Below are positions 47,746 to 63,351 of a stretch of 64,000 bases of DNA, one piece after another. Made by a program: the position numbers and the translations under genes. Within the stretch, counting starts at the first letter, position 1. Every line of letters starts with the position of its first letter. This DNA comes from a bacterium. GTDB taxonomy: Bacteria > JAHJDO01. The notes beneath the pieces were generated by a model. That model did no database searches. It had not been told where the DNA came from and saw only the letters and a list, made by a program, of their open reading frames with translations. The stretch spans positions 3,841 through 67,840 of the forward strand of contig JAUSPT010000024.1 of the NCBI GenBank assembly GCA_030652805.1. The letters run 5' to 3'.

Positions 47746-47835
47746 GTGCTTGACATAGCATGCTGTAATTGATATGTTTCCCCTCGATATGTGTCCTGAT
47801 TTAGGGTAACTTACTTAATAGCATAGGAAGAAGTA

Positions 47836-49905
47836 ATGCAAATTGGAGATGTTAAAAAGATAAGAAATATCGGCATTATGGCTCATATTGATGCGGGTAA
47901 AACGACAACAACAGAAAGAATGCTATTCTTTGCAGGCAGGATACATCGCATAGGCGAAGTTCATGACGGGGCTGCTACAATGGACTGGATGGAACAGGAA
48001 AGAGAGAGGGGAATAACAATCACGTCTGCGGCCACAACATGTATCTGGCGTAAGCATCATATTAATATCATTGACACTCCAGGGCATGTAGATTTCACTG
48101 CAGAGGTAGAACGAAGTCTAAGGGTTTTAGATGGTGCAGTAGCAATATTTTGCGCAGTTGGCGGTGTAGAGCCGCAAACTGAAACTGTATGGAGGCAGTC
48201 GGAAAAATATAAAATTCCCAAGATTGTCTTTATTAATAAAATGGATAGAATTGGAGCAGATTTTTTTGCTGTACTTGAGATGATAGACAAGAAACTTGGA
48301 GTTAACTATGTGCCAATTCAGTTGCCTATTGGAAAGGAAGATAATTTTCATGGCATTATAGATATTGTGGAAGAAAAGGCATTTTTCTTCAATCCGGAAG
48401 ACGCTATGGAAGAGCCGAAAGAACGAGAAATTCCAGAAGACTATGTAAAGATGACGAAGAAATATAGAAATGAGCTAATAGAAAAACTTGCTGACACAGA
48501 TGACAGTCTCATGAATAAATATATTGAAAATCAGCCCATTACAATAGAGGAAATTAAGAATTCTCTTAACAAAGCAACTATAAAATCCGAGATATTCCCT
48601 GTGCTGTGCGGCGCAGCTTTCAAGAACAAGGGAGTCAGGAGGCTTATGGAAGCTGTTGTCGATTACCTGCCAAGTCCAGAAGAGGCCCCCCCTGTAGAAG
48701 TTATAGATAGTGATTCAGGAGAAAAGAGCCTGTTCAGTTTCGGAGAAAAAAAGGATTTATTGGGGCTCGCTTTTAAGATTGCTGTTGACCCTCATATTGG
48801 AAAACTTGTTTATTGCAGAATATATTCGGGTTCAATAAAACAAGGTGAATATGTTTTCAAGGCAGGGTCATCAAAGAAAGAAAGAATATCCCGTATTGTA
48901 AAGATGCACGCTAATAAAAAAGAAGCTGTGAATAGTCTCAGCGCAGGAGATATAGGAGCAATAATCGGGCCAATGAACATTACTACTGGAGATACAATAT
49001 GTAAACAAAATTCTAATCTTTTTCTCGAGAACATAGAATTTCCAACACCTGTAATTTCAGTGGCAATTGAAGCAAAGAACAAGATTGAGCAAGAGAAACT
49101 TTCGGATTCCATAAGAAAATTATCTAATGAGGACCCGACATTTAATTTCTTTTTTAATGAAGAGACATCCCAAACTATTCTTTCTGGTATGGGTGAACTG
49201 CATCTTGAGATCCTGGTAGATAGATTAAAGAGGGAGTTTAAAGTGTCTGCGAATGTAGGCAAGCCTAAAGTTGCTTTCAAGGAGACAATAACCAATATTC
49301 AGGAAGAAAAATACAAACATCAGAAGCAAACTGGTGGAAGAGGGCAATTTGCAGAAGTACACATAGAACTAATTCCTGCAAAGAGAGGTGAAGGGTTCGA
49401 ATTTATTAATGATATCAAGCAGGGAGCTATTCCAAGAGAATTTATTCCTGCTGTTGAAAAGGGCTGTATTGAGGCAATGGAAGCAGGAATTTTTGCGGGA
49501 TATCCTGTAATTGATGTAAAAGTAAGATTATTTGACGGAAGATTTCACGAAGTTGACTCTTCTGAAATAGCTTTTAAGGTAGCCGGGTACTATGCATTCA
49601 AAAGTGCGTTTATGAAGGCAGGTCCAAGGCTTGTTGAGCCGATTATGACAGTAGATATATCTACTCCGGAAGAGTATTTTGGTTCAATCATGTCTGATAT
49701 AACATCAAGAAGAGGTAAGATAATCCTGATAGAAAAAAAGGCTAAGAGCCAGTTAATAAAGGCTGAGGTTCCGCTTATGGAACTTTTCGGTTACGCTACA
49801 CAGCTGAGATCACTATCACAGGGACGAGCAACAGAGTCTATGCGGTTTGAAAGATATGACAAAGCTCCTCCGCATGTTGTCAGTAAAATAATAGAAGACA
49901 ATTAA
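47836..49905 (+). CDS. Elongation factor G paralog (EF-G2-like translational GTPase), stand-alone (not in an rpsL-rpsG-fusA context)
   Basis: G1 [10 protein letters not shown]3 DTPGH, G4 NKMD, and EF-G domains II-V. 689 aa. Confidence 0.85.
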
Positions 49906-49911
49906 ATTAAC

Positions 49912-49932
49912 GGGTCAAGCACGCTTGACCCC
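49912..49932. terminator. Hairpin (GGGTCAAG-CACG-CTTGACCC) between convergent EF-G and HD-domain genes; candidate bidirectional terminator
   Basis: Perfect 8-bp stem read in the sequence. T-rich on the minus-strand side only. Confidence 0.45.
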
Positions 49933-49934
49933 TA

Positions 49935-51386
49935 CTAGATATTTGTAGACAGAGCTTCCCTTGTTCTGAATATTTCTTCAAATGCTCTGACTAGTTTCTT
50001 TTTATGTCTATAGTCATGAGCGTATATCCTGCAGAGGTAGACTCTGGAAGGCACAAATTCAAATAGCTCCTTTAACGTTTCTTTCTGGACCTTTCCAGAC
50101 GCAAGCTCGTATAAGAAAATCTGTTTGTCTCCCATAGCCATGGGATTATCAGGCATTGGATCAAGGGCAGGAATATCTATGCGAAAATCTATCTTATCAG
50201 GAGAGAGGTTTTCCTTTATTTTCGCTTCCAATCTTTCAACATCTGAATAGAAAATATCTGCATAATTTTCTGTATCCTTTAATCTTTCAAATTTCTCATA
50301 AACCATTTTCCACTGCCTTTGTCTCATAAGAATCTTCTCCCATTCTCTGCCAAGCCGGCAGATACTTTGATTTAGGCTGTATTTCCATTTATCTACACTC
50401 GCAAACAATGACCATTCTGTAAGATATAAATAATCATTGAGATGATTTATAGGATTTTTATTTTCAAAGACCACTTTCATTGTTTCAGAGAATATATCCT
50501 TTAAACACAGATCTATGGACCTTGTAGCTCTGTGGTAATAAACAGCAGAATAAAGACTCAATCTGGCATTAACAAAATTGAGCAATGCTGTCTTCCCAGC
50601 TCCATGAAGCGTTAAACCTTTTGATGATATAAATGTATAGTGCAGAATGCGTTCAAGATCAATAATGCCTCTGGAAAAGCCTGTTATATACGAATCTCTT
50701 AATACATAGTCAAGATTATCTACAGTATATATTCCACTAAAAAGAGGTAGTAAGAATTTAAGCCACTTTGGGAAAGATGAGCGAGTTCTGTCTTTTTTAG
50801 GCTTTTCAATAAGAAAAGATATGTACAAAGGGTCAATAACCTCACCTTTAGCAAAATCTCCGGATGGACTTCTTTTGATTTTCTTTAATAATGAGGCTAG
50901 CTTTGCTTTTATTATTGTCTTTGATATTGTCTCATGGGAAACATTAAATTGTTTGAGATAATTGTCATCAAAAAAATGTCCGAATGGTCCATGCCCTATA
51001 TCATGAAGCAGGCCTGCAAGTCTCATCAGCTCTTCTAGGTAATTACTTGACGGGCAATCCGGACAGACTTTTTTTATTGACGGATATAGATGCAGGGCAA
51101 ACCTGCCTGCTACATGCATTGTTCCAAGTGAATGCTGAAATCTGCTGTGCTCAGCTGAAGGAAAAACCCAGAATGCGCTTTGAAGTTGATGTATGCGTCT
51201 GAGCCGCTGTACCCACGGATTATCAATAATATCACGTTCTGTAATCTCTGTTTTATCTTCCTCAGTTGGAGAAGTAAATTTGATGTAATTATGTATAGGG
51301 TCGCTTATTAGATCTATGCCTGAATAAAAAGAATCGTTTTCACCTAGCTCTTTTGTTTCCATTACCTGAGCCTCACATTTTATCAA
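49935..51386 (-). CDS. HD-domain phosphohydrolase of the dGTPase/SAMHD1-like family
   Basis: HSLGTMHVAGRF ... GLLHDIGHGPFGHFFD (H..HD...D metal-binding motif of dNTP triphosphohydrolases). 483 aa. Confidence 0.7.
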   Translation of the reverse strand: MIKCEAQVMETKELGENDSFYSGIDLISDPIHNYIKFTSPTEEDKTEITERDIIDNPWVQRLRRIHQLQSAFWVFPSAEHSRFQHSLGTMHVAGRFALHLYPSIKKVCPDCPSSNYLEELMRLAGLLHDIGHGPFGHFFDDNYLKQFNVSHETISKTIIKAKLASLLKKIKRSPSGDFAKGEVIDPLYISFLIEKPKKDRTRSSFPKWLKFLLPLFSGIYTVDNLDYVLRDSYITGFSRGIIDLERILHYTFISSKGLTLHGAGKTALLNFVNARLSLYSAVYYHRATRSIDLCLKDIFSETMKVVFENKNPINHLNDYLYLTEWSLFASVDKWKYSLNQSICRLGREWEKILMRQRQWKMVYEKFERLKDTENYADIFYSDVERLEAKIKENLSPDKIDFRIDIPALDPMPDNPMAMGDKQIFLYELASGKVQKETLKELFEFVPSRVYLCRIYAHDYRHKKKLVRAFEEIFRTREALSTNI

Positions 51387-51461
51387 TAGTTACTTTTCTA
51401 TTAGTATACAAACATTCCTTTGTGTGTCAATAATATCAGATGATCACGGATTTCCCAGTTT

Positions 51462-52793
51462 TTACCGGGATAATAAACAGGCTGGAATAAACAGGGCTTG
51501 AGTATCGTTTAACTGTCGGCTGTCAAGGAAATCTTTTGTAACAACCAATGTATTTTTAGCATTTATCTGACTCATGCCACTTTTCATTGCTCTGGGAACC
51601 TTTGCCGATTTAAGCGGTTGATATTTAACTTCAATAGCCATATCCCTGATTAAAAAGTCTATTTCGGTACCACTGTAAGTCCTCCAAAAGGATACGGGGT
51701 TGGCTATATCTTGAAGTCCTGCCAGTAGTTGGAATATTACGTTTTCAACCAGATGACCTTTATCTATCCGATCCGATAACGGAAGGAACTGATTAATAAG
51801 TGCATTGCGTATGCCTGTATCATAAAAATATGTTTTAGGTGATTTAATAACTCTTTTCTTCACATTAGAAAAATACGGCGGTATCAAGTCAACTACGAAT
51901 GTAACCGAAAGGATATCCAGATACCTCTGCAGGGTGCGATATGTGATTCCAAGGGGAGTAGTAAGTTCAGAATAGACCGTCAGGCTGCCTATTTGACCGG
52001 CCAGAATCTTAATCAACTGAGTAAAAGAGCCCAGATGATCTATATCAAATAGGGTGTGAATATCCTTGCGCAGATAATCATTGATAATACTCTGAAGGCG
52101 TTTCTGCTTAATATCTGCTGAATCGGCCATAACCACGGCTGGGTGACCACCGTAAACAGTATATTCTTCAAAAAGCGGTATCAGTCTCTGTAGAAAAGGT
52201 TGTATCGCAGGAGGCTCTGGCATCCTTTTCCCAAAGATATTTCGCAAACAAAATTTTTCGGTGAGTTCCGATAACTGATGCTCCTGCCTAAAATTGAGAA
52301 ATTCTTTGAATGCAAGAGACTGTAGATGAAATTCCTGTTTCCTACCGGGCAGAGTGTCCTTGAATTTTTTCCGTAATCCGGTAGATGAGGAACCCGAAGC
52401 GATTATTTTTATTTCAGGGTGGTGGTCAACAAGAAGTTTTACCAGTTGAGATGGATTGTCCAAATACTGAATTTCGTCAATGAACAGATAAAGAATACGT
52501 TTTGAATGAAATTTTTTCCCGGCCAGGCGCAAATGTTCTAATAAAGCTGAAACACCGCTATTACAGATTTCCAGGTCGGCAGAAGATTCTAAGTCGAAAA
52601 AAGCTATATTTTCAAGATTTGCTATTTTAGTCTTAAGTAAATACTGGGCCAGAAGAAACATAAGGCAGCTTTTTCCCACCTGTCTGGAACCAACGATAAT
52701 AATAGATTCACGTTCAGACAACCATGGGATAATTTGTTCCATAATATCTCTTTTGTTTAACTTGCGATTGACGACATCTTCAGTTTTTATCAT
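51462..52793 (-). CDS. AAA+ ATPase, AAA_14/DUF4143 family (second copy in the window)
   Basis: Walker A VGSRQVGKSCL, Walker B LFIDEIQ, and a C-terminal DUF4143-like region (KTYFYDTGI). 443 aa. Confidence 0.7.
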   Translation of the reverse strand: MIKTEDVVNRKLNKRDIMEQIIPWLSERESIIIVGSRQVGKSCLMFLLAQYLLKTKIANLENIAFFDLESSADLEICNSGVSALLEHLRLAGKKFHSKRILYLFIDEIQYLDNPSQLVKLLVDHHPEIKIIASGSSSTGLRKKFKDTLPGRKQEFHLQSLAFKEFLNFRQEHQLSELTEKFCLRNIFGKRMPEPPAIQPFLQRLIPLFEEYTVYGGHPAVVMADSADIKQKRLQSIINDYLRKDIHTLFDIDHLGSFTQLIKILAGQIGSLTVYSELTTPLGITYRTLQRYLDILSVTFVVDLIPPYFSNVKKRVIKSPKTYFYDTGIRNALINQFLPLSDRIDKGHLVENVIFQLLAGLQDIANPVSFWRTYSGTEIDFLIRDMAIEVKYQPLKSAKVPRAMKSGMSQINAKNTLVVTKDFLDSRQLNDTQALFIPACLLSR

Positions 52794-52966: not shown

Positions 52967-54664
52967 ATGGAAGCAAGAAAAACAGGAATTGATATTTTAG
53001 GCAATAAGCCCTGGGGTACACACTTCTGCCAATTTTACCAGACCAAAAATGATTTAATTGATATTCTGGTGCCGTATTTTAAAGCGGGATTAGAAAATAA
53101 TGAATTTTGCATGTGGGTTACTTCAGAGCCTCTAAATGTTGAAGAAACAAAGGAATCGTTAAGAAAGGCTGTAAAAGACCTGGATAAGTATATCAAAAAA
53201 GGTCAGATAGAAATACTTGATTACAGCCAGTGGTATACCAAAGCAGGAAAATTCGAACAGGATAGGGTATTACAGGGCTGGGTCAAAAAGGAGAAGGAAG
53301 CCATAAAGAAAGGGTTTGACGGTCTCCGCCTCACAGGCAATACTTTCTGGCTTGAGAAAAAGGACTGGAAGAGTTTTGCTGATTATGAAGAAGTGGTAAA
53401 CAATGTTATAGGTAAATATAAAATGCTCGCAATCTGCACCTATTCCCTTGAAAAGTGCAATCTATTTAAAGTCCTGGATGTAGTCAAAAACCACCAATTC
53501 GCTCTCATACAGCGTGCAGGTAAATGGGAGATTATTGAAAGCGCCGAGCTCAGGAAGGCGGAGGAGGAGCTAAGGGAAAACGAAGAGAAGTATCGAGACT
53601 TGTGGGAGAACGTAAATGACCTTATTCAGAGCGTTAAACCAGATGGTACGTTTGTATATGTTAACCGTGCCTGGCGAGAAACTCTTGGGTATAATGAGAA
53701 AGAAATCCCAGATCTCTCGTTGTTGGATATCATTCATCCCGACAGTCATGCGCACTGTATGGAGATATTTAAGCGTTTGTTAGCTGGAGAAAAGGTCGAA
53801 TACATTGAAGCTGCGTTCCTGGCCAAGGATGGCAAGACAATTATGGTCGAGGGAAGCGCAAACTGTCGCTTCGTAGATGGCAAGCCTGTTACTACACGCG
53901 CTATTTTCCGTGATGTCACCGAGCGCAAGAAGGTGGAGAAGAGGAAATCGGAATTTCTTTCTCATGTATCCCACGCCTTAAGGACACCCTTGGCTTCGAT
54001 TAAATCCTTTGTAGAGATTCTCTTAAAGTACAAAGATGTGAATCCGACCGAACAAAGTGAGTTTCTGACTGTAATTAATAATGAAACTGACCGTTTAACT
54101 CGCCTGATAAATCAACTTTTAGATTTAGACAAGATAGAACAGGACGAGTTAAAATGGAAATTTGTGTCTTGTGATATCTCGAATATAGTTCAGAACGCAA
54201 TTAGTGAGCTAGAGCCATTGATACAAGAAAAAAATATTGTAGTTAATATGAATCTTCCTTCTCAGGATTTGATTGTTAATGGAGATAAAGATAGATTAAA
54301 TGAGGTGTTCATAAATCTAATAGGCAATGCAATTAAATTTACTCCTAGTAAGAGAGAGATTAGGATAACCGTTAAAAATAAAGGGAAAGTTGTCGAAGTC
54401 AGTATAGCTGATACAGGTATAGGAATACCCAAGGATGAGTTGACCAATATCTTTGAAAGGTTCAAGAGATTAGATAACTCCATTAATAGAAAGCTAACAG
54501 GAACAGGTTTGGGCTTATACATATGCAAGCAAATTATAGAAAAGCATGAAGGTAAGATTTGGGCTGAGAGCCATGGAAGTAAGGGTGCTAAATTTATTTT
54601 TGTCTTACCAAAGTATAAAGCTAAGTCAACTAAAAAGAGAATCGAACCCAAAAGAGGTTCATAG
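52967..54664 (+). CDS. Sensor histidine kinase with an N-terminal MEDS sensory domain, a PAS domain, HisKA and HATPase_c
   Basis: MEDS-type block (HFCQFYQTKNDLIDILVPYFKAGLENNEFCMWV). PAS (VNRAWRETLGYNEKEI). H-box SHVSHALRTPL. N/G1/G2 boxes (LIGNAIKFT, DTGIGI, GTGLGL). 565 aa. Confidence 0.8.
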   Translation: MEARKTGIDILGNKPWGTHFCQFYQTKNDLIDILVPYFKAGLENNEFCMWVTSEPLNVEETKESLRKAVKDLDKYIKKGQIEILDYSQWYTKAGKFEQDRVLQGWVKKEKEAIKKGFDGLRLTGNTFWLEKKDWKSFADYEEVVNNVIGKYKMLAICTYSLEKCNLFKVLDVVKNHQFALIQRAGKWEIIESAELRKAEEELRENEEKYRDLWENVNDLIQSVKPDGTFVYVNRAWRETLGYNEKEIPDLSLLDIIHPDSHAHCMEIFKRLLAGEKVEYIEAAFLAKDGKTIMVEGSANCRFVDGKPVTTRAIFRDVTERKKVEKRKSEFLSHVSHALRTPLASIKSFVEILLKYKDVNPTEQSEFLTVINNETDRLTRLINQLLDLDKIEQDELKWKFVSCDISNIVQNAISELEPLIQEKNIVVNMNLPSQDLIVNGDKDRLNEVFINLIGNAIKFTPSKREIRITVKNKGKVVEVSIADTGIGIPKDELTNIFERFKRLDNSINRKLTGTGLGLYICKQIIEKHEGKIWAESHGSKGAKFIFVLPKYKAKSTKKRIEPKRGS

Positions 54665-54681
54665 AGTAATAGGAGAGATCT

Positions 54682-55368
54682 ATGGCTAAGAGAACAATCT
54701 TAGTAGTTGATGATGATCCTAATATCATTCAAGCGGTCTCTTTTGTTTTAAAAAAGGAAGGATATATAGTTACTACAGCTGTTGATGGAAAAGAAGCATT
54801 TAAAAAAGCTAAAGAAGAATTACCTCACCTAATTATTCTTGATGTTATGTTACCGAAACTGAGTGGATTTGAGGTCTGTAAACGATTAAAAGCTAATACT
54901 CAAACCAGAAAAATTCGTACTATTATGTTGACTGCTAGGAGTGAAGAAAAGGATAAAAGGTTGGGTGAGAAGTTAGGTGTGAATGCTTATATTACTAAAC
55001 CTTATAATATTGATGAGGTTCTATTTACAGTAAAGAGAGCTATAGAGAAAAAAGAATTACAGAGATCAATTGAAAAAATGAAAAAAGCAGCCTTGGTGGG
55101 GTATATGGGAGAGGCGATGTCTCATGAGATATTTAATCCTTTATCTGTTGTTTCTGGCTCCGTCCAACTTTTAATGAGCAGGATTAAAAAAGGCAAAAAG
55201 CTAACTACAAAAGAATATGAAGATTTCTTTAAAAATATTACTAAAAATGTAGAAAGGTGCATAGAGATTATAAATATTTTTAGGAAATTTTATGCATCTA
55301 TAGGCATTGAGATTAAGCCTAGAAATTTAGAAGAAACGTTAAGGGATATATTGGAAGGCAAGATATGA
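54682..55368 (+). CDS. Response-regulator receiver domain fused to a HisKA-like (DHp) domain, with no ATPase domain
   Basis: REC: ILVVDDDPNI...ILDVMLPKLSGFEV...KPY. C-terminal H-box-like MSHEIFNPLSVVSGSVQLL. 228 aa. Overlaps the next gene by ATGA. Confidence 0.65.
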   Translation: MAKRTILVVDDDPNIIQAVSFVLKKEGYIVTTAVDGKEAFKKAKEELPHLIILDVMLPKLSGFEVCKRLKANTQTRKIRTIMLTARSEEKDKRLGEKLGVNAYITKPYNIDEVLFTVKRAIEKKELQRSIEKMKKAALVGYMGEAMSHEIFNPLSVVSGSVQLLMSRIKKGKKLTTKEYEDFFKNITKNVERCIEIINIFRKFYASIGIEIKPRNLEETLRDILEGKI

Positions 55369-56438
55369 TTATGAGTAAAGAGTTTAGCAGAGCTCTGTTT
55401 GAGTACAATCCTATTGAAACCGTAGTCGTGGATTTGGAAGGAAGAATAATCGACTTTAATCTGGCAAAAAAGAACTCAGGGGATAGATTGCCCAATATTG
55501 GGGATGGGATGTACAAGGATTATGCAGCTCATCATGAGATTGACATGTATGCTGAATTGATAAAATGTATCAGAACAAGTAAGGTAAAAAAGTTTCCTGA
55601 GAAAAAATATAAAAAGAGGTTTCTATCCATAACAATAGCTCCCTTTCCCAAAGGGGCAATTATAACATCTCTAGATGTCACCGAGCACAAGAAAGAGACA
55701 GAAATAGAGAGGAAAAGAGCTACAGAGGCGAAAAAGGATTATGAACAACTACAAGCCAATAAGGACGATTTGATTCGCTCCGAGAAACTTGCCTTTACCG
55801 GCCGCATAGCCGCAAATATTGCTCATGAGATAAGAAATCCCCTGACCAATGTAGCTATGGCAGTCCAGCAGCTTGGGAAAACCATTAAACAGGAAGGACA
55901 CATTGCTAAACATATGGACATCATTAAAAGAAACACAGAAAGGATTAACTATTTAATTACTGAACTCCTAAATTGTGCCCGCCCGCCAAAACTTAATATA
56001 CAGCCATGTAATATTCATAAGGTATTAGAAGATATTTTAGAGTCCAACAAGACTAAGATTAGTTCAAAAAATATAAAGATAATTAAAAGGTTTACCTCTG
56101 ACACATTCATAATAAAGATTGATAAAGAACAAATGCAGCGTGCCTTCTTAAACATAGTCATCAATGCTATTGAAGCTATGCCCAAGAGAGGCAAATTGAC
56201 CATTATTACAGAGTTTAAGGGAAATCTTTTTGAGGTGAAGGTTCAAGATACAGGTAAAGGCATTCCTGAAGAAGATATTATCAGGATATTTGACCCTTTC
56301 TTTAGTTCCAAGTCCGGGGGTGTAGGCTTAGGATTGACTATATGTTATGGGATTATTGTGAGCCATGGCGGTACTATAGAGGTAGAAAGCAAGCCGAAAG
56401 AAGGGTCTATCTTTATGGTATCTTTGCCAATTGGGTAA
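55365..56438 (+). CDS. Histidine kinase (PAS-like N-terminus, HisKA, HATPase_c) with no obvious membrane segments
   Basis: H-box AHEIRNPLTNV; N box NAIEAM; G boxes DTGKGI and GVGLGL. 357 aa. Confidence 0.75.
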   Translation: MIMSKEFSRALFEYNPIETVVVDLEGRIIDFNLAKKNSGDRLPNIGDGMYKDYAAHHEIDMYAELIKCIRTSKVKKFPEKKYKKRFLSITIAPFPKGAIITSLDVTEHKKETEIERKRATEAKKDYEQLQANKDDLIRSEKLAFTGRIAANIAHEIRNPLTNVAMAVQQLGKTIKQEGHIAKHMDIIKRNTERINYLITELLNCARPPKLNIQPCNIHKVLEDILESNKTKISSKNIKIIKRFTSDTFIIKIDKEQMQRAFLNIVINAIEAMPKRGKLTIITEFKGNLFEVKVQDTGKGIPEEDIIRIFDPFFSSKSGGVGLGLTICYGIIVSHGGTIEVESKPKEGSIFMVSLPIG

Positions 56439-56547
56439 AGATCAAAAGTTAGAAAAAGTAAAATTTTGAGATAAAAAAGGCACAAAGTGACAAAGGCGCA
56501 AAAGATGCTCGTTTACATAACGGAGAGTGAATATAAACTCACCCTGA

Positions 56548-56598
56548 CCCTCTCTTGAGTAGAGAGGGAATGTTCCCCTTCTCTGTCAAGAGAAGGGG
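56548..56598 (+). other. Two adjacent GC-rich stem-loops (CCCTCTC-N7-GAGAGGG; CCCCTTCTCT-N4-AGAGAAGGGG) in the 210-nt intergenic region
   Basis: Read directly in the sequence; no T-tract follows. Candidate RNA element or attenuator between the kinase gene and the DUF4339-REC gene. Confidence 0.4.
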
Positions 56599-56648
56599 CG
56601 AGGGGATGAGTTGAGTTCACTAAATATTTACGACGACGGAGTGTAATA

Positions 56649-57257
56649 GTGGAAATAAAATATGATATTAGAAGAGGCGCAGATATATATCGGGCAATTT
56701 ATGGAGCTCGATTACAGAAATGGATTCTTGCAGGTAAGATAAAGCGAGGAGAAGTAATTGTCTGGCGAAGCGGTCTTTCAGGCTGGCGCAAAGCCGAAGA
56801 ACTTGAAGAACTGGCGCCATTTTTTGAACAGTGGGAAAAAGAACAATTAAGAGAAACAAAGAGGCAAAAAGAGCAAGTCTTCTTAAGGAAGAAACAGAAG
56901 AAGATAAAGAATATTTTGATAATAGACGATGAGAAGGATTTGTGTTCGCTCCTGTCTGACGCCTTAATCCAGAGAAACTACAATGTATCGATTGCAAACA
57001 CAAAAAGAGAAGCTATGGCTTATCTTAAAAAGAAATCACCTGATTTAGTTCTGTTAGACCTAAAACTACCTGATGGCGATGGAATAAAAATCCTTCCTAG
57101 GATCAAAAGGGTAAATCCAGAGACAGTAGTGATTGTAATTTCTGCCTATGGAAGCGAAGAAAGCAGACAAATGGCAAAAAAGGGAGGAGCTTTTACCTTT
57201 ATAAACAAGCCGTTTACTGAAGAAGATATATTAAGGAGTATAAAAGTACTCTCATAA
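56649..57257 (+). CDS. Single-domain response regulator with an N-terminal DUF4339 (GYF-like) domain
   Basis: DUF4339-like IYGARLQKWILAGKIKRGEVIVWRSGLSGWRKAEEL, then REC (ILIIDDEKDL ... LLDLKLPDGDG ... KPF). 202 aa. Confidence 0.65.
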   Translation: MEIKYDIRRGADIYRAIYGARLQKWILAGKIKRGEVIVWRSGLSGWRKAEELEELAPFFEQWEKEQLRETKRQKEQVFLRKKQKKIKNILIIDDEKDLCSLLSDALIQRNYNVSIANTKREAMAYLKKKSPDLVLLDLKLPDGDGIKILPRIKRVNPETVVIVISAYGSEESRQMAKKGGAFTFINKPFTEEDILRSIKVLS

Positions 57258-57268
57258 CAGAGGGCAGC

Positions 57269-58648
57269 ATGGAGACGATTCTAATAGTAGATGATGAGAA
57301 GGACTTGCGTTTTAATCTTTCCAACATTTTGAAGGACGAAGGTTACAACGCAATCGCTGTGGGAGACGGAAGGAAAGCGCTTAATGCAGTTAAGAAAAAT
57401 TCTCCCAATTTGGTCCTGCTGGATATGAAGCTTCCTGAAATGGATGGGATGCAGATTCTAGAGAAGATGAAGCTGATTGATAAGGATTTGATTATTATAA
57501 TGCTTACTGCTTATGGAAATCTAAATGGAGCGGTAAAAGCAATGAAATTAGGGGCATTTGACTATCTTGCCAAGCCTTTTGATAATGAAGAATTAATTCT
57601 TGTAATAAAAAGGGCTCTTCGGACCCAATATTTAGCCAAGGAAGTAGAAACTCTAAAAAAACGGGTTGGTGAAAAAATTACAGCAGAAGAGCTAATGGGA
57701 GAAAGCCCTCAAATAAAGCAAGTCTTAAAACAGATTAAGATAATTGCTCCGACCAATATGACTGTAATACTTCAAGGTGAAAGCGGAACAGGCAAGGAAT
57801 TGATTGCTCAGATGATCCATCAGGAAAGTCCGCGAAAAAATGACCCTTTTATTGCTATAGACTGTGGCGCAATTCCCGATACATTGGCTGAGAGTGAACT
57901 CTTTGGTCATGAGAAAGGCGCCTTTACAGGAGCTGATGCTCAAAAAGAAGGCAGGTTTGAAGAGGCTAATGGAGGAACTCTGTTTCTGGATGAGATTACA
58001 AATCTCTCTTCTACTACGCAGAGAAAACTTCTCAGAGTGATACAGGAAAGAAGGCTTCAGCATATAGGCGGCAAGAGAAGTATAAAAGTTGACGTCAGAA
58101 TAATCGTGGCTACGAACATTAATCTCTCAGGCGCGGTAAGGCGGGGTAAATTTAGAGAGGACCTCTTCCATAGGTTAAATGAATTTCATATTTCACTTCC
58201 CCCGCTTCGGGAAAGAAAAGATGACATCCCCCATTTAGCCATGCGTTTTTTGGGGGGAGGAAATCAGGAATTAAATAAAAAAATAGAAGGGTTTTCTTCT
58301 GATGTAATGAAATTGCTTCTGGATTATCCCTGGCCGGGCAATGTTAGAGAATTAAAGAATGTAGTCAGAAAAGCAGTGCTTCTGTGCGATTCCAATCATA
58401 TCAAACCGGAACACTTTCCATTAGATAATATTGCTTCCACTAAAAAGCTTGAATTTCAGCAGGATTTGGATAAAGGAGTCTCCCTCAAAGAGATAACTAA
58501 AAAAGCGACAGGACAGATAGAAAAGGAAGCTATTGAGCAAGCACTGGCAAAAGCCGGCGGCAATAAAAGTAAAACCGCCAAAATCCTCAAAATAGACCGC
58601 ATGACCCTCTATTCTAAGATGAAGGAATATCAGATACGTAGACTGTAA
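57269..58648 (+). CDS. Sigma-54-dependent transcriptional activator (NtrC family: REC, AAA+ sigma-54 interaction domain, Fis-type HTH)
   Basis: REC (ILIVDDEKDL...LLDMKLPEMDG). Walker A GESGTGKE, GAFTGA motif, ESELFGHEKGAFTGA, Walker B LFLDEI. C-terminal HTH (AGGNKSKTAKILKIDRMTLY). 459 aa. Confidence 0.9.
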   Translation: METILIVDDEKDLRFNLSNILKDEGYNAIAVGDGRKALNAVKKNSPNLVLLDMKLPEMDGMQILEKMKLIDKDLIIIMLTAYGNLNGAVKAMKLGAFDYLAKPFDNEELILVIKRALRTQYLAKEVETLKKRVGEKITAEELMGESPQIKQVLKQIKIIAPTNMTVILQGESGTGKELIAQMIHQESPRKNDPFIAIDCGAIPDTLAESELFGHEKGAFTGADAQKEGRFEEANGGTLFLDEITNLSSTTQRKLLRVIQERRLQHIGGKRSIKVDVRIIVATNINLSGAVRRGKFREDLFHRLNEFHISLPPLRERKDDIPHLAMRFLGGGNQELNKKIEGFSSDVMKLLLDYPWPGNVRELKNVVRKAVLLCDSNHIKPEHFPLDNIASTKKLEFQQDLDKGVSLKEITKKATGQIEKEAIEQALAKAGGNKSKTAKILKIDRMTLYSKMKEYQIRRL

Positions 58649-58720
58649 ATCGTATATCGTATACAGCACACGGCTAACGAAATACGGACGACGAAATACG
58701 AAATACAGCATGCAAAGCGC

Positions 58721-58793
58721 TGTAGAATAGAGTCTACACTATATAAAGGAACACGTAGGGTTGTTGTAAAATAAATTCTACACAGATGTAGAA
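58721..58793 (+). promoter_or_regulatory. Two palindromes with TGTAGA/TCTACA half-sites (TGTAGAatagagTCTACA; TTCTACAcagaTGTAGAA), 120-190 bp upstream of the sigma-54 promoter; candidate enhancer (UAS) sites
   Basis: Read directly at 58721-58738 and 58776-58793. Their position relative to the -24/-12 element is typical for bacterial enhancer-binding-protein sites. Confidence 0.5.
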
Positions 58794-58910
58794 ACAACTC
58801 TACGCTTTTTGCCTTTAAATTTCCTCTGCTTTTAAGCTCCTCAGAATTCTTTCAAAAGATATTTTTAAAAAAGAGGATACGCAAGCCGAAATTTTTTTTA
58901 GCAGATACTT

Positions 58911-58925
58911 TGGCACGGAATTTGC
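58911..58925 (+). promoter_or_regulatory. Sigma-54 (-24/-12) promoter TGGCACG-GAAT-TTGCT upstream of gvpA
   Basis: Exact match to the TGGCACG-N4-TTGCW consensus, with the GG and GC dinucleotides separated by 10 nt. An NtrC-family activator gene sits immediately upstream. Confidence 0.75.
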
Positions 58926-58934
58926 TTTTACAAT

Positions 58935-59022
58935 ACAGATGGTCGCAGATGAAAAATCGCAGATGGGTACAGATGTTCAATCTGCGCTGGTCTGTGAAAA
59001 TAATCTGCGCTAATCTGTGAAA
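58935..59022 (+). repeat. Array of 8 heptamer/octamer repeats in the predicted gvpA 5' leader: 4x (A/CG)CAGATG forward, then 4x ATCTG(CGC/TGAAA) inverted
   Basis: Sequence read directly: ACAGATGgtCGCAGATGaaaaatCGCAGATGggtACAGATGttcAATCTGCGCtggTCTGTGAAAataATCTGCGCtaATCTGTGAAA. Confidence 0.7.
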
Positions 59023-59039: not shown

Positions 59040-59246
59040 ATGGCAGTAGAAAAAGCAATCGGTTCATCTAGTTTGGTTGAGGTTATTGACAGAATCCTTG
59101 ACAAGGGTGTTGTGGTTGATGCATGGGTTAGAATTTCTTTAGTTGGTATTGAATTACTCGCTATTGAAGCAAGAGTCGTAGTCGCATCAGTCGAGACATA
59201 CCTGAAGTATGCTGAAGCAATTGGTCTAACCGCAACAGCAGCTTAA
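59040..59246 (+). CDS. gvpA: Gas vesicle structural protein GvpA
   Basis: [68 protein letters not shown] is nearly identical in pattern to canonical GvpA (…[27 protein letters not shown](L/I)L(A/T)IEARVVIASV(E/D)[11 protein letters not shown]…). RBS GGAGG 9 nt upstream of the ATG at 59040. The ORF track's GTG start at 59031 is less likely. Confidence 0.97.
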
Positions 59247-59288
59247 GTATAGTTTAAAAAAAGGATTCTTGCCGAGCCACCCTTTTGA

Positions 59289-59372
59289 GCGCAGATTGGC
59301 GCAGATGTAAAAGACAGATGCACACAGAGAAATCTGTGATAATCAGCGTAAAAAAATCAGTGTTAATCTGTG
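59289..59372 (+). repeat. Second cluster of the same CAGATG/ATCTGTG repeats immediately 3' of gvpA (GCGCAGAT, GCGCAGATG, ACAGATG, 2x ATCTGTG)
   Basis: Sequence read directly: gaGCGCAGATtgGCGCAGATGtaaaagACAGATGcacacagagaaATCTGTGataatcagcgtaaaaaaatcagtgttaATCTGTGg. Confidence 0.65.
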
Positions 59373-59435
59373 GTTTAAACAGCATGGTTCGCCAAGAGAT
59401 TCCTTTTTCCGTTCTGAGAAAAAAGGGGTAAAATT

Positions 59436-60134
59436 ATGGGAAGTGCCGAGGAAATGAAGAATTTGGCGCAAGGAATTGTTTCTTCTTATCAGGCCAGAGT
59501 TTCTGAAGTAGCCACGGTCATGGACAATGCTCACCAAATTCTTGAAGATTTTAAGCTCAAAAGAAGTGAGATGAGCAGTCAACTTAGAGAAACCCTTGCC
59601 AATGGAGAGTCTCTCAGAAAAAAGGATTTTGATAATATGATGAAAGGCATCCTTTCCCATCAAGAAGAAAGAGAAAAAGAGGTAAAAGATTTATTAAAGA
59701 CTTTTTTTGAAGAACAAAAAGAAATAGCTGAAGCCATTAGGAAGAATTTGGCCGAAGGCGAAAGCGTGAGAATAAGTGATTTTAAAAAGATGCTCCAGGA
59801 TATTCAGGCAAGGCAGAAACTCAGGGAAAATGAAGTAAGAACGACCCTAAAGGAATTTCAGGAAGGACATAGGGAGATGGCTGAGTCTTTGCACAGCCTT
59901 TTAAATAAAGAAGAGTCCTTACGGATTGAGGACTTTAAAGAGATGCTAAAAGATATTCGTTCAAGACAGATAGAGCGGAAAAAAGAAGTCAGAACCAAAC
60001 TTGATGAATTCAGGAAAGAACATCAAAATATGACTTCCGAATGGAATAAACTAACCGGTCTTATGGCCGAGAAAAGAGCCAGCAAGCTGAGAGGAGGTGA
60101 GAGAGAGGAAAAGTTGGAAGTTGCCAGGGTTTAA
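59436..60134 (+). CDS. Repeat protein (three ~50-aa repeats, consensus L..GES.R..DFK.ML.DI..RQ..RE.EV...L.EF...H.EM) of unknown family; candidate gas-vesicle-associated protein
   Basis: Good RBS (AAAAGGGG). Repeats identified by eye in the translation (SQLRETLANGESLRKKDFDNMM…; RKNLAEGESVRISDFKKML…; HSLLNKEESLRIEDFKEML…). Shares its N-terminal ~40 aa and repeat type with the next gene. 232 aa. Confidence 0.6.
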   Translation: MGSAEEMKNLAQGIVSSYQARVSEVATVMDNAHQILEDFKLKRSEMSSQLRETLANGESLRKKDFDNMMKGILSHQEEREKEVKDLLKTFFEEQKEIAEAIRKNLAEGESVRISDFKKMLQDIQARQKLRENEVRTTLKEFQEGHREMAESLHSLLNKEESLRIEDFKEMLKDIRSRQIERKKEVRTKLDEFRKEHQNMTSEWNKLTGLMAEKRASKLRGGEREEKLEVARV

Positions 60135-60204
60135 TTTTGGATCCTGGGTAAGTAACCTGATGTATGGGAACTAAGAAACTAGAAGTTTAAGAGGAGGAAT
60201 AAAG

Positions 60205-61236
60205 ATGGGAATAGCAAGTGATATCAAAGCACTGGGTGAGGACATTGTTGCCTCTTATGATACGCGAGTAAGGGCGATAGGTGTGCTTGTCAAGGACGTC
60301 GACAAAATGCTTAAGGGTCTTCATACGGATCATAAGAGTATGGCTGCCAATCTTAAAGCTGGCCTTAACAAGGGAGAAGAAGATAGGCTCAATGCCTTTA
60401 AGCCAATGATAGCAGAAATTCAGAAGCGGACAAAGGAAATAGAAGTCTATGTTAAAACTCTGCTCAAAAAGTTTCACAGCGAGCATATGGAAATGTCTGC
60501 CAATCTTAATGCCTCTCTTGCAAAAGGAGAAGAGGATCGACTTAAGGACTTTAGAGCAATGATGGCTGATGTTAAGAAGTTTGTAGCGGATATGGTTGAT
60601 ACGACTGCGAAACTGATGAAGCAAATTCAGGCTGAACAGAAAGATAGAAATAAAGGAGTAGCTGATCTCCTTGCAAAGTTTGCGCAAGACCATGCATCTA
60701 TGGCAGATGAGCTTAGAAAAAGCCTTGCAAAAGGAGAAACAAACAGGCTTGAAGACTTCAAAAAGATGATAGATAGTATCCAAAAATATGTGGCTGATGT
60801 AATTAGTGCGACTAAGCAGCTAATTAGCGAAATTCAAGCAAGGCAGGATGAGAGAAACAAAGAGGTTCTTGCTCTCTTACAGGCATTCCAGGCCGAAAGA
60901 GAAAAGATGGCTGCTAACTGGCAGGCTCTGGCTGCAACAATGGAGAAGAGAAGAGGCGGTAAGCCGATTCCAGTTAAAGTAGAAGCCAGGCAGGAAGTAA
61001 AGACTGTTGAAGAGGCAGTGAAAGAAAAACCCAAAGCTAAACCTAAGGCTGGGCCTAAACCCAAAACACCTGAAGGTCAGATATTAGCTTTGCTTAGGGA
61101 GCATGCTGAAGGCATGAGCTTGCCGAATTTAGGAAATGAAGCAGGCTGCCACTTTATAAAGCTGACCAGTCCAATGAGAGGTCTGCTGGATAAAGGCAAA
61201 GTTAGAAAAGAAGATAATCTTTACTTTATTGCTTAG
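60205..61236 (+). CDS. Paralogous repeat protein (three longer repeats of the same L.KGEEDRL.DFK.M family), with a Lys/Pro-rich linker (KPKAKPKAGPKPKTP) and a C-terminal winged-helix-like domain
   Basis: RBS AGGAGGAATAAAG. Repeats ANLKAGLNKGEEDRLNAFKPMI…, ANLNASLAKGEEDRLKDFRAMM…, RKSLAKGETNRLEDFKKMI…. C-terminal GQILALLREHAEGMSLPNLGNEAGCHFIKLTSPMRGLLDKGKV resembles a wHTH. 343 aa. Confidence 0.6.
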   Translation: MGIASDIKALGEDIVASYDTRVRAIGVLVKDVDKMLKGLHTDHKSMAANLKAGLNKGEEDRLNAFKPMIAEIQKRTKEIEVYVKTLLKKFHSEHMEMSANLNASLAKGEEDRLKDFRAMMADVKKFVADMVDTTAKLMKQIQAEQKDRNKGVADLLAKFAQDHASMADELRKSLAKGETNRLEDFKKMIDSIQKYVADVISATKQLISEIQARQDERNKEVLALLQAFQAEREKMAANWQALAATMEKRRGGKPIPVKVEARQEVKTVEEAVKEKPKAKPKAGPKPKTPEGQILALLREHAEGMSLPNLGNEAGCHFIKLTSPMRGLLDKGKVRKEDNLYFIA

Positions 61237-61252
61237 TGAATGGAGGTGAAAG

Positions 61253-61573
61253 ATGAGCGAGATAAAATGTGCTTTCTGCAAAGGCACGGGCAAGGATCCA
61301 TTTGATCTTCTATCCGAGCTTGCTGTCTGCCAGGTTTGCGGAGGCAGGGGTAAAGTTGAGGTAAAAGAGCCGGCAATCAAGTGTGTCTTTTGTAGCAGCA
61401 CCGGTATCTATCCTCGTAGTCGAGTTACCTGCACTGTATGTAATGGCAAAGGAATGGTTGCGGTTAAAGGCGCGACTGACGAGTGCCCTAAGTGCAAAGG
61501 CACAGGCAGAGCAATAGATAGCGGACTTCCCTGCATTAAATGTGGAGGCAAAGGGGTCGTTTCAAAAAAATGA
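61253..61573 (+). CDS. DnaJ-type zinc-finger mini-protein with six CxxCxGxG motifs (three zinc-centre pairs) and no J-domain
   Basis: CAFCKGTG, CQVCGGRG, CVFCSSTG, CTVCNGKG, CPKCKGTG, CIKCGGKG read in the translation. RBS GGAGGTG. 106 aa. Confidence 0.75.
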   Translation: MSEIKCAFCKGTGKDPFDLLSELAVCQVCGGRGKVEVKEPAIKCVFCSSTGIYPRSRVTCTVCNGKGMVAVKGATDECPKCKGTGRAIDSGLPCIKCGGKGVVSKK

Positions 61574-61755
61574 CTGAATTAAACTCCTCCAGGGAAGACT
61601 TTCTTAGAAAAAGAAAGGAAGCGTTAGATAAGTTGAGTTCCTGCCGGGAAGGTTTTAGAAGGAAGGAGAAGAGAATAAAAGCGGATTTGGCAGAGGCGGG
61701 CAAGACTTGGGAGAAAGTGAGCCAAAAGTTCAAGTGGTGGCAGTCTCTGCCCTAG
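61570..61755 (+). CDS. Small basic hypothetical protein (61 aa from the ATG overlapping the upstream stop; the ORF track starts it at 61540)
   Basis: ATGA overlap with the preceding gene suggests translational coupling. No family recognised. Confidence 0.3.
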   Translation: MTELNSSREDFLRKRKEALDKLSSCREGFRRKEKRIKADLAEAGKTWEKVSQKFKWWQSLP

Positions 61756-61795
61756 AGGAAAAGAAAACAAAAATCAAAAAAGGAGGTAAGATAAG

Positions 61796-62716
61796 ATGGC
61801 AGCTGTTGAGGAGATGACCACAGTACTTGAACCAAGTCCTTTATCAGACTTTGTGGAAACAAAGTATGTGAAGGATGTCACTAATCGGACACTTTCCTAT
61901 ATTAAGGCCGGTTTTCCGGTCCATTTTCGAGGTCCTTCAGGGACAGGAAAGACCACTCTGGCTATGCATGTAGCCAGTAAGGTTAAAAGGCCGGTGGTAA
62001 TGATTCACGGGGATGAAGAGTTTACAACCTCTGATTTGGTGGGTGGTGAACATGGCTACAGGTTTAGAAAGGTTGTAGACAGATTTGTCTCCAGGGTGTT
62101 GAAAGTGGAAGAAGATATGGTAAAGCGCTGGGTGGATAACCGTTTAACGGTTGCCTGTAAGTATGGTTTTACCCTTATCTATGATGAATTCACACGTTCC
62201 CGTCCTGAGGCAAACAATATTCTTCTCTCTATTTTGCAGGAGAAGATGATGGATCTGCCAGTGGGAAGAGGCGGAGAAGAACCGTATTTAAAGGTTGACC
62301 CTGATTTTACCGCTATTTTCACATCAAACCCTGAGGAATATGCCGGAGTTCATCGGAGTCAGGACGCTCTTAGGGACAGAATGATAACCATGGATTTGGA
62401 CCATTTTGATTATGATACGGAAATAGGTATTACCAGGGCAAAATCCAAACTCTCTAAACAAGATTCTGAGAGGATAGTTAATATTGTAAGAGGATTGAGG
62501 GAATCAGGAAAGTGTGAGTATGCACCAACCGTACGCGGCTGTATTATGATTGCTAAGACGCTTAAAGTTCTGGGCACTGCTCCTGCTAAGAGTAATGGTT
62601 CCTTCAGCGCGATGTGTCAGGACATATTGGCTTCTGAGACCAGTAGAGTTGGCTCAAAGACGAATCAGGACAGGGTAAAGGGGATAGTTAAGGAGTTGGT
62701 TAAGAAATATAGTTAA
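61796..62716 (+). CDS. gvpN: Gas vesicle protein GvpN (MoxR/CbbQ-like AAA+ ATPase)
   Basis: Walker A GPSGTGKTTLA, Walker B LIYDEFTRS, ~300-aa length and gvp context. RBS AAGGAGG. Confidence 0.85.
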   Translation: MAAVEEMTTVLEPSPLSDFVETKYVKDVTNRTLSYIKAGFPVHFRGPSGTGKTTLAMHVASKVKRPVVMIHGDEEFTTSDLVGGEHGYRFRKVVDRFVSRVLKVEEDMVKRWVDNRLTVACKYGFTLIYDEFTRSRPEANNILLSILQEKMMDLPVGRGGEEPYLKVDPDFTAIFTSNPEEYAGVHRSQDALRDRMITMDLDHFDYDTEIGITRAKSKLSKQDSERIVNIVRGLRESGKCEYAPTVRGCIMIAKTLKVLGTAPAKSNGSFSAMCQDILASETSRVGSKTNQDRVKGIVKELVKKYS

Positions 62717-62794
62717 AAGACAGAGGGCAGAAGGCAGAAAGCAGAAAAATCTGCTCTCAGAAATCTGGTTTCTGAATAAGAGAGGAGAAAGAAA

Positions 62795-62965
62795 ATGACA
62801 CTGATGAGGACGTTTTCTAAAGTGGAAAAAGATGGGAAGATAAAACTTCCCGGTAATATTCAGCGAGCAGCAGGTCTTAAAGAAGGCCAGTTGATTGAGC
62901 TGAAGATTGTAGGAGCAAGCAGGAAGAAGAATATCTTGCTCTCGGCTAAAGATAGCGCAAGATAG
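62795..62965 (+). CDS. AbrB/SpoVT/MazE-type swapped-hairpin DNA-binding mini-protein (56 aa; below the ORF-track cutoff)
   Basis: Hand translation: MTLMRTFSKVEKDGKIKLPGNIQRAAGLKEGQLIELKIVGASRKKNILLSAKDSAR*. The KVxKxGxIxLPxxIRxxLGLKEGDxLE pattern is typical of the AbrB/SpoVT N-terminal domain. RBS AGAGGAG. Confidence 0.6.
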   Translation: MTLMRTFSKVEKDGKIKLPGNIQRAAGLKEGQLIELKIVGASRKKNILLSAKDSAR

Positions 62966-63000
62966 GTCTGTAAGTTTCTCACATTATAAGGGAGAGAACA

Positions 63001-63336
63001 ATGAAGGATGTTAATAGTCTGCCGGGACTCCATAAGTTGAGGACTATGTTTAGTGCCAAGAAGAGGTCCATACCAAAGGTTCAAAGCTCGGGTTATTTAG
63101 ATTTGTATATGCTCGGGAAAGAGAAAGAGAGACTCCTGAAGGAAGATGAGAGGCTGGATATGAGAAAAGACACTCTCAAGAAGCGCCTGGAGGAGATAGA
63201 CCTGGAGATGAATCAACTACAGGAGGTCTCGAAAAGCGGGATTAAATCTGCTCCGGACATAGGTTTTTCAGGAGGCACTTTCACGCAGAAAAATGGAGTC
63301 AAAAAAGAGTGGAAAAAGATGTCTTTAAATTATTAA
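63001..63336 (+). CDS. Hypothetical protein; weak resemblance to GvpG (hydrophobic YLDLYML segment followed by a charged coiled coil)
   Basis: ORF with RBS (GGGAGAGAACA). GYLDLYMLGKEKERLLKEDERL...RLEEIDLEMNQLQE is reminiscent of GvpG but not verified. 111 aa. Confidence 0.35.
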   Translation: MKDVNSLPGLHKLRTMFSAKKRSIPKVQSSGYLDLYMLGKEKERLLKEDERLDMRKDTLKKRLEEIDLEMNQLQEVSKSGIKSAPDIGFSGGTFTQKNGVKKEWKKMSLNY

Positions 63337-63351
63337 CAACTGCATAGGTGG

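Follow-up and report, generated by a model that had tools for sequence, protein, structure and literature searches.

A putative NtrC-type, sigma-54-dependent control module in front of the gas-vesicle gene gvpA of an uncultured bacterium

Five signalling open reading frames (ORFs), co-directional on the + strand, occupy positions 52967-58648 of a 64-kb stretch of bacterial DNA (the window, to which all positions refer unless a related locus is named; its GC content is 38%). The last of them codes for an NtrC-type activator, and it is followed by putative operators, by a sigma-54 promoter and, at 59040, by gvpA, the gene of the major gas-vesicle shell protein. The five genes specify, in this order, a sensor kinase with a MEDS input domain (kinase 1), a protein made of a receiver and of a dimerization and histidine-phosphotransfer (DHp) domain devoid of ATPase, a further complete kinase (kinase 3, after its rank), a receiver with a GYF-like N-terminal domain, and the activator itself; their junctions are 18 bp, a 4-bp overlap, 210 bp and 11 bp. 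No transmembrane-like segment was detected in any of the five proteins (maximum Kyte-Doolittle 19-residue mean 1.46), which places them all in the cytoplasm. Domains were called with Pfam and equivalogs were tested at NCBIfam cut-offs, while the related loci, designated by L-numbers, came from activator-based scans of genome and metagenome collections combined with gene-context look-ups. A first, sequence-only reading of this DNA had proposed a five-gene signalling cassette of this kind. Pfam finds the five ORFs and their domain architecture as described, and all five are adjacent here; the cassette is nevertheless not invariant, and its core comprises kinase 3, the GYF-receiver protein and the activator only.

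The activator gene (57269-58648, + strand) codes for an enhancer-binding protein of 459 aa, composed of Response_reg (E 3.5e-31), Sigma54_activat (6.9e-71), AAA_lid_14 and HTH_8 (1.8e-15). It is intact, with its receiver aspartate, Walker A motif, GAFTGA loop and Fis-type helix-turn-helix (HTH), and six orthologues keep D8/D9, D52, K102, the Walker A sequence GESGTGKE and the GAFTG part of GAFTGA without change. It scores under every NCBIfam equivalog cut-off. In a neighbour-joining tree of 163 activators, seven members that are linked, or possibly linked, to gvp genes make up an exclusive clade, inside which no gvp-unlinked protein was found; three further relatives fit the same pattern of gvp linkage, and the next relative outside the clade, at 52% identity, has no gvpA nearby.

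Downstream of the activator gene stand three predicted upstream activator sites, strandless palindromes of the form TGTAGA-N6-TCTACA, 18 bp each, at 58721-58738, 58765-58782 and 58787-58804, with 0, 1 and 1 mismatches. With at most one mismatch allowed, 0.14 such sites would be expected, and the number of three was reached in none of 100 shuffles. From centre to centre the sites are spaced by 44 and 22 bp, and the distance from these centres to the -24 element of the promoter, further downstream, is 115-182 bp. Palindromes at enhancer distance had been seen from the letters alone, and all three sites are confirmed, but the range then given, 58721-58793, cuts the third one. The promoter itself, TGGCACGGAATTTGCT at 58911-58926 on the + strand, has its GG at -24 and its GC at -12, with a predicted start near 58937; its description as an exact -24/-12 element holds, as TGGCAC-N5-TTGCW is matched exactly nowhere else in the 64 kb, the expected number of such matches being 0.05. 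An integration host factor site was considered and is not claimed: the stretch that separates the palindromes from the promoter has conserved A/T tracts but no exact WATCAANNNNTTR.

The window, L166 and L082 hardly differ in their DNA between the first dyad and the promoter, while the 5′ untranslated region (UTR) diverges. L166, with an activator 95% identical to that of the window, has three TGTAGA-type dyads in the same 44/22-bp spacing, then an exact sigma-54 promoter and gvpA, and L082 (89%) has two exact dyads and a third with a 1-nt longer spacer, again followed by an exact promoter and gvpA. One exact TGTAGA dyad and an exact promoter are found in L177 (70%), in front of a receiver gene and then gvpA; L002 (67%) has two dyads just past the stop codon, on a contig that ends before the promoter region. 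Three TGTCC direct repeats occupy the region in L084 (64%), where an exact promoter again precedes a receiver gene and gvpA, and in L085 (56%), in which sites are not defined, the exact promoter is followed by the same succession. Finally, L083 (63%) has the three TGTCC direct repeats twice and a degenerate promoter, TGGCATGAATAATGCT, also twice, two SLT genes coming after the first copy and gvpA after the second. The proposal that activator and promoter form a unit with gvpA could have failed on their separation in relatives; this was looked for, and the unit is kept in 6 of the 6 relatives that have downstream sequence (L166, L082, L177, L084, L085 and L083). The position of a receiver gene directly behind the promoter in L084, L085 and L177 points to feedback in those relatives, not in the window.

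Sites and activators vary together. The five activators with the recognition helix AKILKIDRM(T/S)LYSK carry TGTAGA-N6-TCTACA, and the two with ILQI(N/Q)RKALYRK carry three TGTCC direct repeats, with 11-bp spacing, at the equivalent position. This covariation of HTH helix and site is the strongest computational evidence that the sites are the operators of the activator; the TGTAGA-N6-TCTACA sites are accordingly named here as its predicted operators, and the covariation would constitute a new lead that can be put to the test. We consider it probable that the locus is the regulatory module of the gas-vesicle cluster, in which activator, operators and sigma-54 promoter would together switch on gvpA. 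As a separate observation, the operator of L083 (three TGTCC repeats) is duplicated with its sigma-54-like promoter, TGGCATGATTAATGCT, at 3760-6626 of that locus, where the first copy precedes two SLT lytic-transglycosylase genes that have been inserted between activator and gvpA; this arrangement suggests that cell-wall remodelling may be co-regulated with gas-vesicle formation there.

Kinase 3 (55365-56438, + strand, 357 aa), the start of which overlaps the preceding stop codon (ATGA), consists of a short PAS-like N-terminus followed by HisKA and HATPase_c, the last two being Pfam calls. It had been described as a soluble PAS kinase: a soluble HisKA-HATPase_c protein it is, but the PAS part stays below Pfam significance (best E 0.016-0.1). 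The PAS assignment comes from the alignment of residues 6-355 over the full length of PDB chain 3a0r_A, which we take to be ThkA, a kinase made of PAS, DHp and catalytic ATP-binding (CA) domains. The best match is the cytoplasmic portion of ZraS, and the best NCBIfam models are those of AtoS and ZraS, both under cut-off. Homologues of kinase 3 are encoded directly upstream of the GYF-receiver gene or of the activator gene in L166, L082, L002, L170, L177, L178, L179 and L180. Because it is adjacent in all loci and has a DHp domain of the AtoS/ZraS kind, kinase 3 is most probably the cognate kinase of the activator.

The protein encoded next (56649-57257, + strand, 202 aa) is a single-domain response regulator preceded by a putative GYF_2 domain (PF14237, formerly DUF4339). 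In the sequence-only reading it appeared as a DUF4339-receiver protein; Response_reg is significant, but GYF_2 is weaker than this implied, with 21.9-24.1 bits against a Pfam cut-off of 25.8. The orthologue of L082 does pass that cut-off, at 26.4 bits, and several members of the family have a precomputed PF14237 match. The GYF-like domain, some 65 residues at the N-terminus, is nearly invariant and better conserved than the receiver, which retains its acidic pocket D93/D94, the nearly invariant D137, and K187. Altogether 985 proteins belong to the family at E below 1e-5, in more than 120 clusters with 59-91% identity over the full length and with source names that include Thermodesulfovibrionia, Omnitrophica, Planctomycetota and Verrucomicrobia; for the N-terminal domain, only about 15 representatives (50% level) match at E below 1e-10. 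The gene adjoins the gvpA cluster in L166, L082, L177 and L178, and gvpA lies within 5 kb in 6 of the 7 loci with usable downstream sequence, the seventh, L179, being interrupted by a prophage-like insertion. No publication linking GYF or DUF4339 to gas vesicles was found in the searchable literature, and the gas-vesicle-linked GYF-receiver family would seem to be new. L178 (6894-12684), from a metagenome-assembled genome labelled Verrucomicrobia, has the PAS kinase and GYF-receiver genes next to gvpA, but it encodes a NarL-type regulator there and lacks a sigma-54 promoter. A duplicated promoter region of about 70 bp precedes both gvpA and the gene before gvpA in that locus.

The triad of kinase, GYF-receiver and activator is present in the window, L166, L082, L002, L177, L179 and L180, and the core was met again next to gvpA in metagenomic bins that carry the labels Omnitrophica, Verrucomicrobia and Planctomycetota. 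The expectation that the same cassette would be found next to gvpA in related genomes is thus borne out for the triad, but not for the branch formed by the MEDS kinase and the receiver-DHp protein, which is found in closer relatives only.

The sensor of this upstream branch, kinase 1 (52967-54664, + strand, 565 aa), has the Pfam architecture MEDS-PAS-HisKA-HATPase_c, with an E-value of 5e-47 for MEDS. A link of MEDS domains to hydrocarbon or redox sensing is a prediction in the literature. Its orthologue in L169 is a MEDS kinase with 95% identity, and that of L166 shares 92% identity over PAS, DHp and CA but has PAS-PAS in the place of MEDS. Across the relatives the input domain varies (MEDS, PAS-PAS, PAS/GAF) on a kinase core that is 73-95% identical, and it is, on this comparison, exchangeable.

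Its neighbour (54682-55368, + strand, 228 aa) matches Response_reg and HisKA only in Pfam. The claim that it bears a DHp histidine and no ATPase domain is right, and it extends to a conserved family: about 20 homologues of 225-231 aa have the same architecture, with H148/E149/N152/P153, D54, T84 and K106 invariant, and the family ends exactly where the CA domain begins in a full-length relative (P0045). An AlphaFold2 model (predicted local distance difference test 85) comprises the receiver, a helix at 110-169 and a return helix at 176-206, so modelled that the last receiver helix would continue into a 60-residue helix carrying His148. A Foldseek search of this model against the PDB returned mostly receiver domains and no informative DHp-only analogue. 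Receiver-DHp proteins lacking an ATPase may well represent a new family, amenable to experiment.

In the window this gene has a composite origin. Residues 1-119 of its product are 86-88% identical to the stand-alone receiver of L166 and L169; with the receiver-DHp protein of these loci, identity is only 42-44% in the receiver and 91-94% in the DHp part (residues 121-228). At the DNA level, identity of about 95% with one ancestral gene gives way to about 95% with the other near 54975-55010, within a shared microhomology, TATATTA(C/T)TAAACC..ATATT. This double switch, in protein and DNA, argues that an in-frame deletion of about 0.7 kb fused two ancestral genes; the window gene is then, as read from these identities, a deletion chimera, with residues 1 to about 107 derived from the stand-alone receiver and with all catalytic residues kept. 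In this genome the deletion would short-circuit one step of the ancestral chain. The longer arrangement can be seen in L166, where a PAS-PAS kinase gene is followed by those of a receiver (121 aa) and a receiver-DHp protein (226 aa), by a 99-aa gene and a gene resembling the sigma-54 DNA-binding domain (DBD), and by kinase, GYF-receiver and activator. L169 has the MEDS kinase (95%), receiver, receiver-DHp, 99-aa and sigma-54-DBD-like genes, and L170-172 have a PAS/GAF kinase, a receiver, a receiver-DHp protein, a kinase and a GYF-receiver. In L166 and L170-172 the branch immediately precedes the triad, and in L169 it stands alone. The stop codon of the receiver-DHp gene overlaps the start of the next kinase gene in the window, L170-172 and L174, which argues for a functional pair.

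The 99-aa gene and the 253-aa sigma-54-DBD gene that overlaps it follow the receiver-DHp gene in close relatives (L166, 10684-11738; L167, 7119-8176; L168, 1782-2839; L169, 9125-10182), and the pair is absent from the window. The similarity of the 253-aa protein to sigma-54 is confined to the DNA-binding domain (37 bits, with a degenerate RpoN box, RTICNCR), the activator-interacting and core-binding regions being missing. Within a cassette that feeds a sigma-54 promoter, such a DBD-only paralogue could act as a promoter-occluding regulator.

We may now attempt to assemble these elements into a mechanism. Phosphorylation of the activator at D52 would promote the binding of three dimers at the three dyads, all on one face of the DNA given the 22- and 44-bp spacing. 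The activator would then assemble its AAA+ ring, and its GAFTGA loops would contact the sigma-54 holoenzyme across the A/T-rich spacer, so that the polymerase would be remodelled, the promoter opened at 58911-58926, and gvpA with its downstream operon transcribed from about 58937. The most likely phosphodonor would be kinase 3, a cytoplasmic PAS kinase of the AtoS/ZraS/ThkA type, and the GYF-receiver protein would be a second substrate in the same phosphoryl flow, where it might compete for phosphate as a sink or, through its GYF-like domain, serve as an adaptor. A second, lineage-restricted input may come from the MEDS-PAS kinase through the receiver-DHp protein, translationally coupled to kinase 3. 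This protein may relay phosphate from Asp to His to Asp, as a fusion similar to Spo0F-Spo0B, or, gated by its receiver, it may act on the activator branch as a phosphatase or decoy. We infer the wiring as a multi-input phosphorelay, while a phosphatase or decoy role of the receiver-DHp protein fits equally well.

Several observations weigh against a regulatory module of this extent. All the loci compared are metagenomic, and the module is known here from sequence alone. The window has no rpoN gene in its 64 kb; rpoN is found near the gas-vesicle cluster in L177. The layout of L178 implies that the pair of kinase and GYF-receiver, which it singles out as the most constant gas-vesicle-linked element, is not tied to a sigma-54 output. 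The 210-bp structured insertion that splits genes 3 and 4 makes a single operon uncertain. L084 and L085 have no upstream branch, modules of the kinase-receiver-receiver-X type also occur in a non-gvp context (L175), and the chimeric deletion could have disabled the MEDS/receiver-DHp branch altogether. These last three points, with the fact that the branch is not found in the triad loci L177, L178 and L180, are also what would commend an explanation in which only the last three genes control gas vesicles, the MEDS kinase and the receiver-DHp gene being a separate fragment, possibly crippled, with no input to gvpA. Yet the branch sits directly 5′ of the triad in three diverged sets (the window, L166, and L170-172 at 65-79% identity), the overlap of the receiver-DHp stop with the start of the PAS kinase recurs, and the DHp part has been conserved at 91-94% while the receivers diverged, in a chimera that lost none of its catalytic residues. 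We find it unlikely that the branch is such a stray fragment. Even more radically, promoter and palindromes might have arisen by chance, or serve another gene, with gvpA expressed from a sigma-70 promoter, and L178 does show gvpA run without sigma-54. This is very hard to reconcile with an exact promoter expected 0.05 times per window, with the shuffling result, with sites and promoter that keep their positions in L166, L082 and L177 while the 5′ UTR diverges, and with the finding of no sigma-70-like match on the + strand from 57586 to gvpA, in a scan that stayed at background; we regard it as highly improbable.

The role of the receiver-DHp protein is more evenly poised. It could be a receiver-gated phosphatase or a decoy, docking the activator or the GYF-receiver protein, or it could form an inactive heterodimer with the PAS kinase. 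Its invariant H-E-x-x-N motif also serves phosphatase activity in HisKA kinases, it has no ATPase domain, and the kinase to which it is translationally coupled is complete and can do without a relay; the isolated DHp domain of EnvZ, moreover, dephosphorylates OmpR-P. Against this, the invariant histidine would be dispensable in a pure decoy, a receiver joined to a His-bearing helix bundle is exactly the logic of Spo0F and Spo0B, and the sequence does not discriminate between relay and phosphatase. A role of this kind seems to us a serious possibility, held slightly short of even. Going much further than the regulatory module that we favour, one may imagine that PAS kinase and GYF-receiver, usually with the activator, act as a dedicated master switch for gas vesicles, passed from phylum to phylum along with gvp clusters, the GYF-like domain coupling phosphorylation to a gas-vesicle protein or to the activator, and the receiver-DHp protein being a new, fused phosphotransferase of the Spo0F-Spo0B type that lets MEDS, PAS and GAF sensors gate the formation of an organelle. 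As a whole this picture is a speculation that we would hold to be doubtful.

The putative target of the module is a gas-vesicle cluster. The gvpA gene (59040-59246, + strand, Pfam Gas_vesicle 2e-16) codes for a protein of 68 aa that is 93-97% identical in related loci. It is followed, on the + strand, by genes for a coiled-coil protein (59436-60134) with strong 51-residue repeats of the type LAxGESLRxxDFxxML... and for its paralogue (60205-61236), both without Pfam match and both kept after gvpA in L166, L082, L085 and L177; placed where gvpC would be, they are likely GvpC-like shell strengtheners of unusual repeat length. Two small proteins with DnaJ-type CXXCXGXG zinc fingers, recognized by their sequence repeats (61253-61573 and 63352-63750, + strand), are kept in L166, L082, L084, L085 and L177, and are not among the canonical Gvp proteins. 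GvpN (61796-62716, + strand) is an NCBIfam equivalog, with 339.5 bits against a cut-off of 266.8, and a small ORF lies at 63001-63336 on the same strand. The order of these downstream genes (59436-63750) is the same in L166, L082, L085 and L177.

Both sides of gvpA are marked by hairpins. A long stem-loop of CAGATG-type repeats and their inverse (58934-59019, + strand; minimum free energy (MFE) -41.4, z -5.8) lies at the 5′ end of the predicted gvpA transcript; it is specific to the window, being absent from L166 and L082. Another, 3′ of gvpA (59267-59397, + strand; MFE -50, z -6.1), has an outer stem that is kept in L082 and L084, and an inner part that is a window-specific insert of the CAGATG type. 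Inverted repeat arrays of CAGATG/CATCTG flank an inserted PDDEXK_3 gene in L166 (15700-16170) and L179 (8590-9095), and the hairpins that bracket gvpA resemble them, so that they appear to be copies, devoid of an ORF, of a small insertion element with flanking hairpins, which would target intergenic regions of the gas-vesicle cluster. In L166 a 23S_rRNA_IVP gene is found between GYF-receiver and activator. The sole sizeable gap of the cassette (56439-56648, + strand) is filled by a window-specific, GC-rich double hairpin (RNA fold z -5.0), with inverted repeats CCCTCTCT..AGAGAGGG and CCCCTTCTCT..AGAGAAGGGG; L166 has only about 50 bp at this position, and in L002 the activator is followed by a similar element (3765-3840). 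It is probably an insertion akin to repetitive extragenic palindromes or miniature inverted-repeat transposable elements. An Rfam scan gave nothing around gvpA, and a terminator scan gave background level only; two adjacent tRNA genes at 43440-43607 are the sole Rfam matches in the window.

As for the bearer of this cluster, two other metagenomic proteins reach 92-93% identity with the EF-G of the window, and the best match from any named phylum has 58%; by this marker the source lineage is deep-branching and unclassified. The synteny FTHFS, EF-G, HD-domain gene and AAA_14/DUF4143 ATPase, upstream of the cassette (45633-52793), is common to L166 (1-7221) and L169 (233-6187). The window GvpN is 88% identical to its counterpart in the 'Omnitrophica' locus L177, as against at most 58% for EF-G with named phyla, and this disparity suggests that the gvp cluster would have spread laterally together with its regulators.

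Gas vesicles set the position of planktonic and sediment microbes in the water column, and they serve as acoustic reporters, while beyond Serratia, haloarchaea and cyanobacteria rather little has been learned of what turns their genes on. A compact module that can be predicted from its sequence, made of an activator, an 18-bp operator and a consensus sigma-54 promoter, lends itself directly to test or to reuse, and the receiver-DHp family offers a testable case of how extra sensors may be wired into a two-component pathway.

It remains to situate these elements among known systems. With NtrB-NtrC, AtoS-AtoC and ZraS-ZraR the locus shares an activator of the receiver-AAA+-HTH_8 type with its GAFTGA loop, and dyads 100-200 bp upstream of a GG-N10-GC promoter; kinase 3 is most similar to AtoS and ZraS. 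In contrast to these systems, the kinase here is soluble, the binding motif is different, the target is the operon of an organelle, and the NCBIfam scores are below cut-off. ThkA-TrrA of Thermotoga maritima, presumably the system behind PDB 3A0R, has a soluble PAS-DHp-CA kinase of about 350 aa that aligns over its full length with kinase 3, but the partner of ThkA is a stand-alone receiver that is not known to be linked to sigma-54 or gas vesicles. Spo0F-Spo0B of Bacillus and ChpT of Caulobacter pass phosphate from a receiver to a histidine on a DHp-like bundle unable to autophosphorylate, a path that the architecture of the receiver-DHp protein would allow; here, in contrast, receiver and DHp are in one polypeptide, with a bona fide HisKA carrying H-E-x-x-N and without a degenerate CA-like domain.

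The closest parallel in function is Serratia sp. ATCC 39006, where the start of gvpA1, mapped by rapid amplification of cDNA 5′ ends, lies behind a sigma-54 consensus, and where expression needs the NtrC-like GvrA together with GvrB and GvrC; gvrA-type genes have been reported in many proteobacterial gvp clusters (PMC4982088). The likeness to GvrA/B/C noticed by the sequence-only reading is therefore apt. In both systems the gvp cluster encodes an NtrC-like activator, a kinase and a single-domain receiver, a -24/-12 promoter stands before gvpA, and the GYF-receiver protein corresponds to GvrC, although the two families are unrelated. The arrangement is otherwise different, as the activator gene is here immediately upstream of gvpA, in the order kinase, receiver, activator, promoter, gvpA and without any gvp gene between the regulators, while in Serratia it heads a second operon with gvpH/Z/F2/F3. 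The receiver of the window has its putative GYF_2 domain, an extra kinase/receiver-DHp branch is present, no quorum-sensing input is evident in the window, and operator sequence and lineage differ. As a proteobacterial proxy we may take a Methylocella plasmid locus (L165), ordered activator, gvpF, kinase, receiver, TGGCTCCGTTCTTGCA, gvpA, in which TGGCTCCGTTCTTGCA is a -24/-12-like element with one mismatch to the consensus; in the gvpA plasmid records of Thiodictyon, Spartinivicinus and Octadecabacter, no activator gene lies close to gvpA. The window activator is 43% identical to that of Methylocella, no closer than to generic NtrC-type proteins, and the receivers show no specific similarity. 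The neighbour-joining tree leaves the Methylocella activator outside the window clade, although by distance no protein is nearer to it than that of the window (0.54 against 0.56); orthology of the window activator to GvrA is not demonstrable by way of this proxy. We can therefore understand this locus as a variation on a theme already established in Serratia, the control of gvpA by sigma-54 and an NtrC-type activator: the principle is known, and it is in its partners, its lineage, its gene order and its operator that the module described here differs.

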